DNA of 64,000 nucleotides. Origin: Actinomyces sp. ICM47. Its GTDB lineage: Bacteria > Actinomycetota > Actinomycetes > Actinomycetales > Actinomycetaceae. The position numbers and the translations under genes were made by a program. Location of the stretch: assembly GCF_905370305.1 (NCBI RefSeq), contig NZ_CAJPJX010000001.1. One strand, given 5' to 3'. A model generated the notes under the pieces. It was not told the DNA's origin, did not search any database, and saw only the letters and a list, made by a program, of their open reading frames with translations. Positions 35,831 to 40,644 of this stretch are shown here, in pieces. Numbering within the stretch: the first letter of the stretch is position 1; each line of letters starts with the position of its first letter.

Positions 35831-36730
35831 TTAGGCGACGTCGAGGGTCTTGGCGACACCCGCCAGGACCGCGCCCACGATGACCAAGGCGACGCCGATG
35901 ATGGTCCAGCGCAGCTCCTTGCGCGTGCGGGTTTCGTGGAGCCAGAGGATTCCCAGCGGGGTGGAGATCAGGATTCCGAGCTGGGAGAGCGTGAAGCCGG
36001 TGCCGGCGCCCAGGTTGTTGGAGTTGAGCTGGAGCAGCAGGATGGCGGTGCCCCACAGGACGCCGTTGACAATCGAGGGGAACATGCGGCGGTGACGCAG
36101 CGAGTCCTCGGGGGCGACGCCGCCGCGGCCCTGGATTGCGAAGAAGGCACCGCAGTAGGCGGTGTAGCCGATCGCCTGGGGCAGCAGGAATTCGGCGGGC
36201 TGGATACCGAAGTACTTGATGATAAGCGGGAAGGCCACGAGTCCCAGCGTGGAGGTGGTCAGCAGGAACGCGCCCCGCTTCCAGTCGAGGGAGGCCGCGT
36301 CGGAGCCGGACTCGGAGCGGGAGAGGAACCGGATGCCGACGATGAGGACGGCGATGGCGGCGAGGCCGTAGGGCAGTGCGCCGCCGTGGAGCCACTCGCC
36401 GAAGATCGCGATGCCAGCCAGGGACATGAGGACCAGCTGGCCGCCGGTGGACAAGGGCATCGTGCGGCTCATGCCGAGCACCGAGTAGGAGCGCAGCTGA
36501 TCGCACACACCGACGCCGAGGAGCAGACCGGTCAGGAAGGAGACGCCCAGGTTCAGGGGTGTCCACGCGGGGTGCAGGAACGGGGTGGCGACGGCAGCCA
36601 TGAGCAGGCCGCCGAGGACGGCACCCATGACTCGCTGGCGGTCTGAGCCACCGGTTTTTCCCATCAGCGTCGTAGCGACGCCGAAGAAGACTGAGGGCAG
36701 GATGCCGATGAGGATCGTGGACAGAGTCAT
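35831..36730 (-). CDS. GRP-family (GlcU/RbsU-like) sugar uptake permease
   Basis: About 10 TM helices. MTLSTILIGILPSVFFGVATTLMGKTGG...YSVLGMSRTMPLSTGGQLV match the glucose/ribose porter family. Confidence 0.7.
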   Translation of the reverse strand: MTLSTILIGILPSVFFGVATTLMGKTGGSDRQRVMGAVLGGLLMAAVATPFLHPAWTPLNLGVSFLTGLLLGVGVCDQLRSYSVLGMSRTMPLSTGGQLVLMSLAGIAIFGEWLHGGALPYGLAAIAVLIVGIRFLSRSESGSDAASLDWKRGAFLLTTSTLGLVAFPLIIKYFGIQPAEFLLPQAIGYTAYCGAFFAIQGRGGVAPEDSLRHRRMFPSIVNGVLWGTAILLLQLNSNNLGAGTGFTLSQLGILISTPLGILWLHETRTRKELRWTIIGVALVIVGAVLAGVAKTLDVA

Positions 36731-36953
36731 GTGCGCACCTCCTGGGGTGGTCGCGGCCCCGTTTCACGAGGCCGGGGCTTGTTTGCGTTGAATAGTGCGG
36801 CGGGTGCGCCGTCACCTCTTCCACGCTAGTCGCCGCCTCCCCCTCGCTTGCAATCTCCATCGCGCTTTTGGCTACTGTTTCACATGCACATCGTGAAGCC
36901 TTTCACCAGATCAGGCCCACTCGATGACGCAGCGCACGCCCGGTTCCGTAAAA

Positions 36954-37013
36954 CTGACGCCGCTCCGTAAAAGCGGCCCGGGCCTCGTCCCAGATGAGGA
37001 ACGAGGCCCGGGA
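36954..37013. repeat. Direct repeat copy 1 (60 bp) bounding the left side of the island. It contains a terminator hairpin.
   Basis: CTGACGCCGCTCCGTAAAAGCGGCCCGGGCCTCGTCCCAGATGAGGAACGAGGCCCGGGA is identical to 38638..38697. CCGGGCCTCGT / ACGAGGCCCGG form an 11-bp stem. On the minus strand the hairpin is followed by GCTTTTACGG. Confidence 0.9.
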
Positions 37014-37104
37014 ACGTTCACGGGGCCACAGCCCTGGCATCAGACTATAGGGCGAACAAGGTGCAGGAGAGACGCGCACAGCCCTTGTAAGAAAACCGCC
37101 TGAA

Positions 37105-37560
37105 CTACATGTTGGGAGCGAACGTAATTTCGCCGGAGCGAATGAGAGGCAGAAGAACTGCCGTGCCGGTGACCCGCGTGGTCAGGTCACTGAGGGCTTC
37201 ACGAACAAAGGGAATCGCTGCCATGAGCGCGACTTTCGATGCGAATTCGGCAGATGCTTCAGGAGCGAGAACAAACTCCTCAGACCCCGCATAATCGGTG
37301 ATGACAGCGATAATGGCCTGCCACTGCGCGGCTTTGAAATGGAATTCAAACCGTGCTCCGAACTCTTTTCCTTCCTGTCGAGTCCCGAGCTTGCAGTCAA
37401 TCTCGATCGGAGTCGACTCGCTGTCTTCACGATCGATACCTGCCTGCGGAGCATTGTCTTTGAGGTCAATCGACAGGTGGTCAAAGCGGATAGCTGCCAG
37501 CTGGAGTTCCGCAATCCTGAGCATCTCGTCGGCGCTTACCAAGAGGGGTACGTCAGACAT
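37105..37560 (-). CDS. SecB-like chaperone of a toxin-antitoxin-chaperone (TAC) module (tentative)
   Basis: Acidic 151-aa protein. It overlaps the stop of the antitoxin gene by 8 nt. The segments LRIAELQLAAIRFDHLSIDLKDNAP and AIPFVREALSDLTTRVTGTAVLLPLI resemble the SecB strand and C-terminal helix regions. It is in the same third position as Rv1957 in the M. tuberculosis higB1-higA1-Rv1957 operon. Confidence 0.5.
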   Translation of the reverse strand: MSDVPLLVSADEMLRIAELQLAAIRFDHLSIDLKDNAPQAGIDREDSESTPIEIDCKLGTRQEGKEFGARFEFHFKAAQWQAIIAVITDYAGSEEFVLAPEASAEFASKVALMAAIPFVREALSDLTTRVTGTAVLLPLIRSGEITFAPNM

Positions 37561-37942
37561 GAGCTGGCTCCTGGGTAATGGTCCAGCCGTCTGCGATTAC
37601 CTGTGCCTGACGCGGTGTCGCCGGAACACGGACAGTCGCCTTGGCGGCTCCGGTCATCTGCCACGCAGAGGGCACGCCCTCACCACAGTCATCGACAACC
37701 TTAATGTCGAGGAGCGCATCGACGGCCATCGCGTAACGGATGATGGATGACACGGTCGGGTTAGCGTCATAGCGTTCAAACGCGGCGACCGTCGGCTGAC
37801 TGACGCCCATGCGCTCGGCGACAGTCTGCTGGCTAAGCTTATGCTCCTTGCGGAAGCTTACCAAATCCTCGAGAAGGCGATCCTTCGCATCGACCAGCAG
37901 ATCTGCGCGGCGCTCAAGGATCTCATCACTCACTGAAGTCAT
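37553..37942 (-). CDS. higA: HigA-like XRE-family HTH antitoxin (TAC-type)
   Basis: The HTH reads LSQQTVAERMGVSQPTVAAFER, followed by RYAMAVDALL. Both closely parallel the LSQ..VA.RMGV.QPTVS.FEK / RYARALDA pattern of mycobacterial HigA1. A short C-terminal tail follows the HTH. Confidence 0.75.
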   Translation of the reverse strand: MTSVSDEILERRADLLVDAKDRLLEDLVSFRKEHKLSQQTVAERMGVSQPTVAAFERYDANPTVSSIIRYAMAVDALLDIKVVDDCGEGVPSAWQMTGAAKATVRVPATPRQAQVIADGWTITQEPAHV

Positions 37943-37982
37943 AGATTAAACTATATAAGTGTGAGATGACGTTATGCAAACT

Positions 37983-38537
37983 TCAGTCATGTTGTGTGCG
38001 CCGCTCGACACCCCAGCATGTGGAATATCCCGAGTTGAGGAGGCTTTCGGCAATGCCGATCTCAGCGTCTTGCACGGCCTTGGTCGCAGCCGGGTCCCCC
38101 TCGACGATTACCTTCTCATGAACATGAAGGCCTAGTATGCAAAGGCCAAGCTGATCAAATGGCTGAGCATGGATGAGGCGGACCTCAACCGGAATCCCTA
38201 TGCGATTGACTTCGTTAACAGAGATCTCTCCCCCGGCCCAGCGTATTTCGAAGAGAACGTCATCGCCGCGCAGAGACTTCAGTTCTTCCGGTGGATAAAG
38301 CTTACCCTTGGCTGCCCTTTCAAGGCGCTTTTTGAAATGAGCGCGGTTAATCTTATCCAGGTATGGATTCCAGCGGCGGTTTGCCGGAGCCTTGATGGCT
38401 CCCATGAGAGCCTCCACAGCTAATATGATGTGCTCTTGGCCTGTGCCATTGCCGCCGCCATACCAATAGAAGTCCACAGGCAGGTCGAGGCACGCATTCG
38501 ACCTGGAGGAATTATCTGCGACGCTCATGAACTCCAT
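37983..38537 (-). CDS. higB: HigB-like (RelE/ParE superfamily, Gp49-type) toxin with an N-terminal extension
   Basis: The core LKSLRGDDVLFEIRWAGGE...VRLIHAQPFDQLGLCILGLHVHEKV parallels mycobacterial HigB1 (IKPIRGDILELRW ... FRVLFFRW..HPVALTAFYKNQQK). Start taken at the ATG at 38537 (MEFMSVADN) because a promoter and palindrome lie just upstream. An internal ATG at 38405 (MGAIKAP) would give a 140-aa canonical-size toxin. The track ORF start at 38630 lies inside the flanking repeat and is rejected. Confidence 0.65.
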   Translation of the reverse strand: MEFMSVADNSSRSNACLDLPVDFYWYGGGNGTGQEHIILAVEALMGAIKAPANRRWNPYLDKINRAHFKKRLERAAKGKLYPPEELKSLRGDDVLFEIRWAGGEISVNEVNRIGIPVEVRLIHAQPFDQLGLCILGLHVHEKVIVEGDPAATKAVQDAEIGIAESLLNSGYSTCWGVERRTQHD

Positions 38538-38558
38538 GGTAGCCCGGTGGTATTGAAT

Positions 38559-38579
38559 TGTGAGCGCACATGCCGTCAA
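38559..38579 (-). promoter_or_regulatory. Candidate autoregulated promoter of the TAC operon: 12-bp perfect palindrome TGTGAGCGCACA abutting a -35-like TTGACG
   Basis: The minus strand reads TTGACG-gca-TGTGCGCTCACA-attcaatacc..ATG. The palindrome sits between the -35 and -10 positions, as expected for a HigA-type operator. Confidence 0.5.
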
Positions 38580-38637
38580 CGGCTTGCCACGTACGACACG
38601 CAAGGGGAACTCACAGTCGCCCCCGAGCATGAGGAAG

Positions 38638-38697
38638 CTGACGCCGCTCCGTAAAAGCGGCCCGGGCCTCGTCCCAGATGAGGAACGAGGCCCGGGA
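38638..38697. repeat. Direct repeat copy 2 (60 bp), which is the native glmS intrinsic terminator
   Basis: Identical to 36954..37013. It lies 34-93 nt downstream of the glmS stop, on the glmS strand. Confidence 0.9.
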
Positions 38698-38730
38698 GCG
38701 CTGCCGGGGCACGCGCCCCGCGCGAGTGGA

Positions 38731-40644
38731 TTACTCCACCGTCACGGACTTAGCAAGGTTGCGCGGCTGGTCGACGTCCAGCCCCTTGACGGTGGCGAGT
38801 TCGCAGGCGAAGATCTGCAGCGGTACGACGGTCAGGAGCGGCGCGTACAGGGTCGGCACGGGGGGCACGCGGAAGACGACCTCGGCGAACTCGTCGACGG
38901 AGGTGTCCCCTTCCTCTGCGACGACGATCGTGCGGGCACCGCGGGCGCGGACCTCAGCGATATTAGCCAGGACCTTGCCGTGCAGCTCGGGGCGGCGCGG
39001 GGTCGGCACGATGACGATGACCGGCTGCCCCTCGTCCACCAGAGCGATGGGGCCGTGCTTGAGCTCGCCAGCGGCGAAGCCCTCGGCGTGGATGTAGCAG
39101 ATTTCCTTGAGCTTGAGCGCGCCTTCGAGGGCGACGGGGAAGCCGACGTGACGCCCCAGGTAGATGACCGAGGTTGCGTCCTGCATGGTTCGGGCGAACT
39201 GGCGGACCGCCTCGCCGTTCTCGAGGACGCGGGCGATAGCCTCGGGGACGCGCGCGAGCTTCTCCATGTAGTCGGCGATCTCGTCGGCGTACTTGTTGCC
39301 GCGCACCTGCGCCAGGTACAGGCCCAGGATGTAGCAGGCGGCAACCTGCGCGGTGAAGGCCTTGGTGGAGGCGACAGCGATCTCGGGGCCGGCGTGGGTG
39401 AGGATCACGGCGTCGGACTCGCGCGAGATGGTCGAGCCGGGCGTATTCACGATGGCGACGACCTTCGCGCCCTGCTCGCGCGCGTGGCGGATCGCCTGGA
39501 TCGTGTCCATGGTTTCGCCACTCTGGGAGATGGCGACGACCAGGGTCTTCTCACCGACGACGGGGTCGCGGTAGCGGAACTCGCTGGAAAGCTCGACCTC
39601 GACGGGAATGCGGCACCAGTGCTCGATGGCGTAGCGGGCGACCTGGCCAGCATAGGAGGCGGTACCGCAGCCGATCATGATGACCTTGTCGACGGAGCGC
39701 AGGACGGACTCGGGGATGCGAACCTCGTCCAGGGCCAGGTGACCGAAGGAGTCGATGCGGTCGGCCAGGGTCGCACCCACAGCGTCGGGCTGCTCGTGGA
39801 TTTCCTTCTCCATGAAGGTCGGCCAGCCATTCTTGGTGGCGCGGTCGGAGAAGAAGTCAACCTCGTATTCCTTGGGAGCTACGGGCGTGCCGTCGGGGTC
39901 GATGACGGTCACGTCGGTCGCCGAGACGACGACGACCTGGTCCTGATCGATCTCAACGGCACGGTTCGTGTGCTCGACGAAGGCCAGCACATCCGACCCC
40001 AGGAAGTTCTCACCCTCACCCAAGCCGATAACCAGCGGGGAGGAACGGCGGGCCGCGACGATAACGTTTGGGGACTGGGTGGAGACAACCAGGAGAGTGA
40101 AGGTGCCGTGAAGCTGGGCGGTGACCGCGCGCATGGCGACGACCAGCCGGCGCGCGACCTCTTCGTCGGTCCCGGTCAGCCCGGCGACCGCTCCCGTGTA
40201 CGAGGCCGGGGTGGCCTGGTCGTAGGCGCGCGCCAGCAGGTGGACGACCACCTCGGTGTCCGTCTCGGAGGCGAAGGTCTCGCCATCGGCGATAAGGGCA
40301 GCGCGCAGGGTGTCCGCGTTTTCGATGATGCCGTTGTGCACGAGCGAGAAACGCCCATCGGGACTCGTGTGGGGGTGAGCGTTCGCCAACGTGGGGCGTC
40401 CGTGGGTCGCCCAGCGGGTGTGCCCGATACCGGCGAAAGCGTCGGCGGGACTATCCGCGTCGATTTCTTCCACGAGGTTCACGAGCTTACCGACCGCACG
40501 GCGCACGTAGAGGCCATCCGCGCCGGTCAGGGCGATACCCGCCGAGTCGTAGCCGCGGTACTCCAGGCGCGCCAGACCGCCGAGGATCACCTCGCGGCTG
40601 CGCTGGGAAGCCTTACATCCAATATGTCCAACAATTCCGCACAT
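38731..40644 (-). CDS. glmS: Glutamine--fructose-6-phosphate aminotransferase (isomerizing)
   Basis: [13 protein letters not shown] has the N-terminal nucleophile Cys2. Two SIS domains are present. It ends ...[17 protein letters not shown]. The 88-codon upstream extension in the track ORF is rejected. Confidence 0.95.

Follow-up and report, generated by a model that had tools for sequence, protein, structure and literature searches.

The window analysed here is a stretch of 64,000 nucleotides (64 kb) from Actinomyces sp. ICM47 (contig NZ_CAJPJX010000001.1), and the element in question is a small island of low GC content behind glmS. Between glmS and the gene of a GRP sugar transporter we found three intact, closely spaced open reading frames (ORFs), all on the minus strand, which we refer to, in the order in which they are read, as the toxin (T), antitoxin (A) and chaperone (C) genes. 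A first-pass annotation, made from the letters of the DNA, had proposed that these three tightly packed genes form a tripartite toxin-antitoxin-chaperone (TAC) module. The ORF list bears out the packing and the overlap of 8 nt between the last two genes (37553-37560, ATGTCTGA), and every peptide string quoted in that annotation could be found in these ORFs. Our analysis leads to the same reading: the island is very probably a HigBAC-type TAC module carried on a horizontally acquired insert. We favour this reading because of the fold predicted for the toxin, the family of the antitoxin, the profile homology of the chaperone, the T-A-C synteny maintained across mobile contexts and the purifying selection acting on the genes. 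The features of the locus are collected in Table 1.

Table 1. Features of the island and its neighbours (window coordinates; aa, amino acids; pI, isoelectric point)
Feature	Coordinates	Strand	Basis or remark
glmS	38731..40644	minus	Pfam matches of 93-96% identical orthologues
Left direct repeat (native glmS terminator region)	38635..38710	minus	Directly after glmS stop codon; two hairpins
Putative upstream control region	38529..38634	minus	-10-like TACCAT at 38541-38536, 7 nt before toxin ATG
Toxin gene, 181 aa	37983..38528	minus	Invariant ATG at 38528
T-A spacer with candidate internal promoter	37941..37979	minus	Conservation in alignment A7
Antitoxin gene, 129 aa	37553..37942	minus	Pfam HTH_3
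Chaperone gene, 151 aa, pI 4.5	37105..37560	minus	Profile homology to Rv1957 and CmdC
Right direct repeat (second glmS terminator copy)	36951..37026	minus	Followed by T-tract (GTCAGTTTTA), then native sequence upstream of transporter gene
GRP/PF06800 sugar transporter gene	35831..36730	minus	Pfam matches of 93-96% identical orthologues

The island behind glmS

At 56.0%, the GC content of the island interior lies below that of the window (65.0%) and of the adjoining genes (67%), and it is the lowest of any 1.6-kb stretch in the 64 kb. The difference is also seen at third codon positions (GC3), with values of 0.60-0.67 for the island genes and 0.87-0.90 for glmS and the transporter gene. The foreign composition noted in the first-pass annotation therefore holds in its direction, but the contrast given there (52-55% against 68%) was slightly too strong.

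The island is bounded by two direct repeats of 76 nt, 93% identical to each other, each carrying a hairpin with a stem of 15 bp. In the left copy this hairpin reads CCCGGGCCTCGT(T/C)CC..GG(A/G)ACGAGGCCCGGG and is accompanied by a second, small one; the 5' end of the right copy (GTGAACGTTC) matches the variant present at the single-copy sites of other strains. At the occupied site, glmS is followed by repeat A, a cargo of 1,608 bp and repeat B, after which the native downstream sequence resumes. These two sites are the only ones in the window with the 36-nt core of the hairpin, which would be expected 0 times by chance. The block delimited in the first-pass annotation, which made no mention of the repeats, coincides with the pair. 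A scan of the whole window with Rfam, on both strands, gave no family at gathering score and no RNA element near or upstream of glmS or the island.

The triad occupies the glmS site in five of 20 informative species-representative genomes (Schaalia/Pauljensenia odontolytica group), and in the remaining 15 a short spacer is found in its place. This empty-site spacer measures ~320 bp and contains one terminator copy in the closer relatives that we read, and ~95 bp in P. hongkongensis and S. georgiae. The ~1.7-kb block after glmS is a foreign, horizontally acquired insert in an oral Schaalia/Actinomyces-type bacterium, and its insertion just downstream of glmS, as first proposed, agrees with its low GC and with the 15 empty sites. 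Two further descriptions of the site need correction. That of a "classical hotspot" is not supported, since this island is the only cargo seen there and nothing at the site is Tn7-like; nor is the triad unusual in this clade, given its presence at the site in a quarter of the species genomes and hundreds of metagenomic homologues. The island contains the three TAC genes only and no recombinase. Regarding a Tn7-like or other glmS-targeting element, there is no transposase or integrase in the insert, and its flank is a 76-nt terminator duplication, not a short target-site duplication. A Tn7-like origin of the repeat, or one like that of repetitive extragenic palindromic (REP) sequences, was rejected on the two copies in the window and the lack of transposition genes. 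The 76-nt repeat may be an attachment (att) site that is used in trans; alternatively, Campbell-type recombination may have left it behind.

The alleles of the island differ among strains more than their surroundings do. Between the window and locus L012 the flanks are 98% identical and the toxin and chaperone only 76%, and the synonymous divergence (dS) is 0.48-0.67 for toxin and chaperone against 0.13 for the flanks. In locus L016 the toxin is 77% and the chaperone 91% identical to those of the window, so that the divergence of the two genes is uncoupled among strains. Since the island alleles diverge beyond their flanks, and toxin and chaperone do so independently, the sequences point to horizontal exchange and recombination within the module, which looks mosaic.

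These observations also bear on whether the low-GC block could be ancestral, having been lost from sister genomes by recombination between the terminator copies. Direct repeats of 76 nt are exactly the substrate for a deletion by homologous recombination, and the empty sites hold one copy, as such a deletion would leave. Nevertheless, we consider this history unlikely in view of the GC3 of the island genes relative to their flanks, the excess of toxin and chaperone dS over flank dS in the comparison with L012, the 15 empty species representatives and the presence of the same triad on an integrative and conjugative element (ICE) and on plasmids elsewhere (see below). Gain and later loss can both occur, and the question concerns the history of the island rather than the function of the module.

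Toxin, antitoxin and chaperone genes

The maximal ORF of the first gene (37983..38630) encodes 215 aa. We took the ATG at 38528 as the start because it is invariant across the chromosomal, ICE and Actinomyces ruminis copies, and the ATG three codons upstream is missing in A. ruminis (upstream-region alignment). Judged from these sequences, the 215-aa ORF is most likely over-called; its first 34 codons are an upstream control stretch that is frequently mis-called as coding, and the homologues are mostly ~181-186 aa long. All 89 database relatives of the toxin come from Actinomyces or Schaalia and are unnamed or labelled "hypothetical". An AlphaFold (AF2) model, built from an alignment of 29 sequences, reached a predicted local distance difference test (pLDDT) score of 90.6 and a predicted template modelling (pTM) score of 0.88. 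The modelled elements follow each other as beta-alpha-alpha-beta-beta-beta-alpha, and the N-terminus is elaborated; the antiparallel sheet, the N-terminal helices and the long C-terminal helix are those of a compact RelE fold. A long helix at the C-terminus is typical of Gp49-like toxins (PMC9098466). Residues E97, R99, R120, H140, K142 and Q156 (184-aa numbering) do not vary among 29 homologues with identities as low as 40%; the catalytic residues of HigB-TAC are E66, R68, R77, F93, K95 and Q98 (PMC9098466), the last also given as Q98/K99. In PDB, the single toxin sequence (phmmer) gave nothing meaningful and toxin profile A2 weak, spurious matches only, and a Foldseek search with the model returned non-significant matches only, of which M. 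tuberculosis HigB1 had the highest probability. We conclude that the product of gene 1 is supported as a predicted HigB/Gp49-type member of the RelE/ParE superfamily, with a membership that rests on the modelled fold because no curated sequence model matches. The RelE/HigB-type core that had been proposed for it is thus retained on topology, C-terminal helix and order of conserved residues, but not as a recognisable PF05973 domain or a significant Foldseek match.

The antitoxin gene begins 40 nt past the toxin stop codon. Its product matches Pfam HTH_3 (PF01381) over residues 30-72 with an E value of 1.5e-9 in the model search that had been suggested for it. The closest solved relative is HigA of Streptococcus pneumoniae (6af3_B; E 1.1e-4, residues 7-75 of 129). 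What the toxin matches best by structure, among the non-significant Foldseek matches, is the partner of this HigA chain. S. pneumoniae HigA is 97 aa long and the alignment ends at residue 75 of the antitoxin, which has an extra tail of ~40 residues (~86-129, GEGVPSAWQMTGAAKATVRVPATPRQAQVIADGWTITQEPAHV). Two tryptophans stand 26 residues apart in this tail, W94, in the context EGVP(A/S)(T/A)WQ, and W120, in D(D/G)W(S/T), and they are kept in 121 and 112, respectively, of 121 close antitoxin homologues; overall conservation is 0.88 in the tail against 0.96 in the core. The tails of distant and plasmid antitoxins are unrelated in sequence, yet each carries at least two Trp/Phe residues before a polar residue. 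The chaperone-addiction domain (ChAD) of the M. tuberculosis antitoxin has two repeats, with W108 and W137 29 residues apart, and binds the chaperone through 108-WHRLSSYRG-116 (PMC5105189); its beginning, EVPTWH, was read from a cloning primer in the same work (PMC5105189). In the ChAD of E. coli HigA, aromatic residues have Asp before and Ser/Thr after them (bioRxiv 10.1101/2024.02.24.581848). The assignment of gene 2 as an XRE helix-turn-helix (HTH) protein related to HigA was therefore well founded, and its sequence supports a HigA-like antitoxin of the XRE/HTH_3 type with residues ~86-129 as a candidate ChAD.

The third product is acidic, as had been noted, and its kinship emerges at the level of profiles. 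A phmmer search of PDB with the single sequence gave nothing meaningful, and the best match of the window protein in PADLOC was a weak one (E 0.006) to PD-T4-9_C, which is CmdC, the SecB-like chaperone of CmdTAC (PMC9519451). The CmdC model also matches 18 of 19 close homologues (best E 1.6e-5) and 39 of 100 distant members of the family (best E 4.8e-7). A profile of the 19 close sequences ranked Rv1957, the SecB-like chaperone of the M. tuberculosis TAC operon, first in PDB, with an E value of 0.71. In a full HMMER scan of 1.84 billion representatives the same profile retrieved 466 proteins at E<=1e-3, nearly all of 140-170 aa, from which we drew an alignment of 100 sequences (profile A3). 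At E<=1, A3 has a single match in PDB, 5mtw_C ("SecB-like chaperone Rv1957"), with an E value of 4e-9; the alignment spans the beta4-helix region and includes the motif FPYVRE / YPYIRE. A fragment of Rv1957, taken from its printed sequence, shows 30-45% identity to many representatives of the family. SecB is the sole other recurring signal in Pfam and NCBIfam, with two of the 100 members matching PF02556 at E<0.01 and three matching the NCBIfam model, and hhalign placed A3 and E. coli SecB in register with a modest score (E 4.5e-4, probability 33%). The AlphaFold model of the chaperone is poor (pLDDT 43) and the fold search made with it was uninformative. Taken together, the profile-level homology supports gene 3 as encoding a predicted SecB-like TAC chaperone of the SecB-TA / HigC type. 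The A3 and CmdC matches and a gene order like that of M. tuberculosis HigBAC agree with the original proposal of a TAC chaperone placed like Rv1957. Through the 8-nt overlap, the chaperone gene is predicted to be translationally coupled to the antitoxin gene.

Two stretches of conserved DNA may control these genes. Upstream of the toxin, all copies in upstream alignment A6, whether chromosomal, from the ICE or from A. ruminis, share TA(C/T)CAT..ATGAGCGT without change. The 40-nt spacer between toxin and antitoxin contains TTGCAT (37979-37974), 18 nt, TATAGT (37955-37950), 7 nt and the ATG, and its 3' half (ATA.A.TT....CTATG) is invariant even in loci with a toxin only 42% identical. An imperfect palindrome, ATAGTTTAATCTAT (37954-37941), spans the ATG of the antitoxin, and where one arm differs between loci the other differs with it: ATAGTTT / AATCTAT in the window, ATAGAGTT / CACTCTAT in locus L009 and ATAGATTT / TAATCTAT in locus L033. 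Scanning for a consensus sigma-70 sequence found no promoter. Leaderless transcripts are common in Actinomycetota, and we hypothesize that two candidate promoters, proposed on conservation and actinobacterial -10 logic only, would give leaderless transcripts for the toxin and for antitoxin plus chaperone, with the palindrome as a candidate HigA operator.

Conservation of the triad and the module reading

Every locus that we retrieved through the toxin or the chaperone contains the T-A-C triad in the same order, with one exception in the third gene of locus L032. Eleven of these loci are chromosomal and lie at the glmS site. In Schaalia hyovaginalis the triad is found on an ICE, where it is preceded or followed by genes for a relaxase, a methylase and a DUF4913 protein at one end and by those for TraG/VirD4 and TrbL at the opposite end. 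More distant triads, with toxins 40-46% identical to that of the window, lie between two tyrosine recombinases in a metagenomic island (L032) and in a locus that resembles a defence island (L033), where the neighbours are a PLD-helicase, a toxin pair of the PIN type and an Eco57I-type enzyme. Plasmids carry it in Curtobacterium flaccumfaciens (L035), Clavibacter sepedonicus (pCS1, L036) and Dermacoccus nishinomiyaensis (L037), where RefSeq labels the genes hypothetical, HTH regulator and hypothetical; profiles A2, A5 and A3 match these plasmid toxins, antitoxins and chaperones with E values of 2.5e-28 to 1.5e-6, e-22 to e-33 and e-28 to e-42, respectively. The proposal of a T-A-C module is thus borne out by an order shared with M. 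tuberculosis HigBAC and conserved in chromosomal, ICE, island and plasmid loci. Pairwise ratios of nonsynonymous to synonymous divergence (dN/dS) are 0.1-0.4 for the three genes, compared with 0.05-0.17 for glmS and the transporter gene, and by this comparison of sequences all three are under purifying selection.

Several loci have particularities of their own. The plasmid triads adjoin a tyrosine recombinase, a Fic protein or insertion sequence (IS) elements, and their hosts are plant-associated or environmental Micrococcales. In L032 the toxin and antitoxin are clear homologues, while the third gene (4973-5425, 150 aa) has the right size but is unrecognised by chaperone profile A3. The third component may have been replaced here by a non-orthologous gene. 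In A. ruminis (GCA_002154335.2, L034 4592-5425) the antitoxin stop codon is absent and the Trp-bearing tail runs in frame into the chaperone start, generating an ORF of 277 aa. This A-C fusion may be natural or may stem from an error in the assembly; a real one would argue for a physical partnership of antitoxin and chaperone. Two records, titled Xylanimonas cellulosilytica 352_XCEL (NZ_JVKM01000042.1, L014) and Sanguibacter keddieii 250_SKED (NZ_JVOJ01000032.1, L016), encode glmS and transporter products 92-97% identical to those of the window and are probably mislabelled.

How such a module would work can be outlined from the M. tuberculosis and E. coli systems. The product of gene 1 would be a ribosome-dependent mRNA endonuclease, which the HigA-like antitoxin would bind and neutralise, probably also repressing the operon at the palindrome over its own start codon. 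The Trp-bearing tail would render the antitoxin unstable or prone to aggregation unless held by the SecB-like product of gene 3, whose synthesis would be translationally coupled to that of the antitoxin. Titration of the chaperone, which unfolded clients such as a structural protein of a phage could bring about, would lead to loss of the antitoxin, and the freed toxin would shut down translation, with abortive infection or growth arrest as the result. On ICEs and plasmids the same property would give the element post-segregational stability. Release of the toxin upon diversion of the chaperone has been described in M. tuberculosis (PMC5105189), and in E. coli HigBAC the chaperone is titrated by gpV of phage lambda (bioRxiv 10.1101/2024.02.24.581848). 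For the island, we infer the toxicity of gene 1, the chaperone dependence of the antitoxin and the trigger by analogy with these systems.

Some of our results weigh against a TAC module. Neither the toxin with its 29 homologues nor the chaperone of the window has a Pfam match at E<=1, PF05973 and PF02556 included, so that both proteins went undetected by the two models with which the first-pass annotation had proposed to check them; NCBIfam and PHROGs likewise have no match to either, and PADLOC none to the toxin. The invariant residues of the toxin follow the order of the HigB-TAC catalytic set, a likeness of motif order and not of superposed structures. Some HigB paralogues with the same fold are non-toxic, for example HigB2 and HigB3 of M. 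tuberculosis (PMC9098466). Finally, a search of IMG/VR viral contigs with the chaperone (A1) and toxin (A2) profiles found no relatives.

With these points in mind, the triad could also be an ordinary two-gene HigBA whose third gene is a conserved passenger, a generic holdase or regulator dispensable for antitoxin activity. The low pLDDT of the chaperone model and its uninformative fold search leave room for such a passenger, and the unrecognised third gene of L032 indicates that the third position can hold something else. We regard this explanation as quite improbable, because the sole database relatives of the third product are the TAC chaperones Rv1957 and CmdC, and it is present with toxin and antitoxin in every other locus examined. 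In addition, its gene is predicted to be coupled to that of the antitoxin through the 8-nt overlap, the two form a fusion ORF in A. ruminis, and the Trp-bearing tail of the antitoxin is absent from the two-component HigA of S. pneumoniae. A decayed or domesticated remnant, with a RelE-fold protein devoid of nuclease activity, as in M. tuberculosis HigB2 and HigB3, and an HTH protein acting mainly as a transcription factor, would fit a gene 1 product that toxin hidden Markov models (HMMs) do not recognise and that has 181 aa instead of the ~115-125 aa of canonical HigB, and a dN/dS above that of the housekeeping neighbours, but it is very improbable given that the polar and basic residues matching the HigB-TAC active-site order are invariant in the 29 homologues, that no locus has a shortened copy of any of the three ORFs and dN/dS stays well below 1, and that plasmids and ICEs, on which one would expect functions in addiction or defence, have kept the module.

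The TAC reading can be extended to a broader picture that we offer tentatively and consider rather unlikely. The island would be a minimal mobile cassette without recombinase, consisting of the 1,608 bp and one 76-nt att-like segment identical to the glmS terminator, and would depend for its movement in trans on the recombinase of an ICE or of the host, or on recombination of the Campbell type. The TAC would be its sole cargo, with the chaperone acting as a sensor of phage proteins in oral Schaalia. Toxin and chaperone would represent deep, Actinomycetota-wide HigB and SecB-TA clades missed by HMM libraries, and their uncoupled alleles would reflect reassortment in an arms race.

TACs are known as stress-responsive and anti-phage modules and, to our knowledge, M. 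tuberculosis and E. coli are the only species in which they have been characterised. The island is a previously unannotated TAC of an already known type and brings no new mechanism and no new kind of system, since Actinobacteria had been found before to possess TACs (PMC3581621). The modest but useful additions are a mobile TAC lineage that extends across Actinomycetota (the S. hyovaginalis ICE, the Curtobacterium, Clavibacter and Dermacoccus plasmids and the oral Schaalia island), and, in human oral Schaalia, a polymorphic mini-island flanked by a duplicated terminator. Pfam, NCBIfam and PGAP miss the toxin and chaperone of this lineage, which are annotated as "hypothetical", and adding these clades to the HMM sets used for toxin-antitoxin (TA) and defence systems would improve annotation. 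With its presence/absence polymorphism, Schaalia is a natural setting in which to ask if TACs influence how susceptible bacteria of the oral microbiome are to phages.

Elsewhere in the window, at 1617-4080 on the minus strand, lie two tandem paralogous ORFs of 385 and 361 aa, described from their translations only. Their N-termini resemble lipoprotein signals (...LAGC / ...LTGC), and they lie in a second stretch of lower GC, ~57-58% over 1200-3000.

Comparison with known systems

The closest parallel is HigBAC of M. tuberculosis, formed by Rv1955 (HigB1), Rv1956 (HigA1) and Rv1957 (the SecB-like chaperone). Both hosts are Actinomycetota, and the systems share the T-A-C order and an XRE-HTH antitoxin with a C-terminal tail of ~40 aa containing two similarly spaced tryptophans, where the island motif GVPATW resembles EVPTW of M. 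tuberculosis. Rv1957 is the only solved relative of the chaperone family (E 4e-9), and the compositionally foreign location is one that many TACs share (PMC3581621). They differ in that the island toxin is ~60 aa longer and unrecognised by PF05973, and in that the island chaperone has 151 aa instead of 181-184 aa, with only its C-terminal half (~67 residues) aligning significantly with Rv1957. The island also has no upstream gene like Rv1954A. Sequence identity is low, at 14-17% between the toxins when these are aligned by structure.

The anti-phage systems HigBAC of E. coli NT1F31, CmdTAC and MqsRAC share with the island a tripartite logic built on a SecB-like chaperone, and the CmdC model matches the island chaperone family. 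Aromatic tail motifs in a D-x-W-S/T context and carriage on mobile elements or defence islands (compare L033) are further likenesses. On the other hand, their hosts are Proteobacteria, the toxin CmdT is an ADP-ribosyltransferase and MqsR belongs to another fold family, and the E. coli HigA ChAD has 96 aa and four motifs, compared with ~40 aa and two in the island tail. For these systems a defence phenotype and a trigger are known. The two-component HigBA of S. pneumoniae (PDB 6af3), which joins a Gp49-type HigB to an HTH HigA, differs in having no chaperone gene and a 97-aa HigA without the tail.

With SecB itself (PF02556), the third product shares its small size, its acidity and an in-register profile match over the beta3-beta4-helix region, including a (F/Y)P(Y/F)(A/V)RE motif, and a few members of its family reach SecB models. 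It differs in that the window protein matches SecB in neither PF02556 nor NCBIfam and is encoded within a TA operon and not alone. We know of no SecB-dependent export pathway in Actinomycetota. All SecB-like genes found in Actinobacteria belong to TAC or antitoxin-chaperone (AC) systems (PMC3581621).

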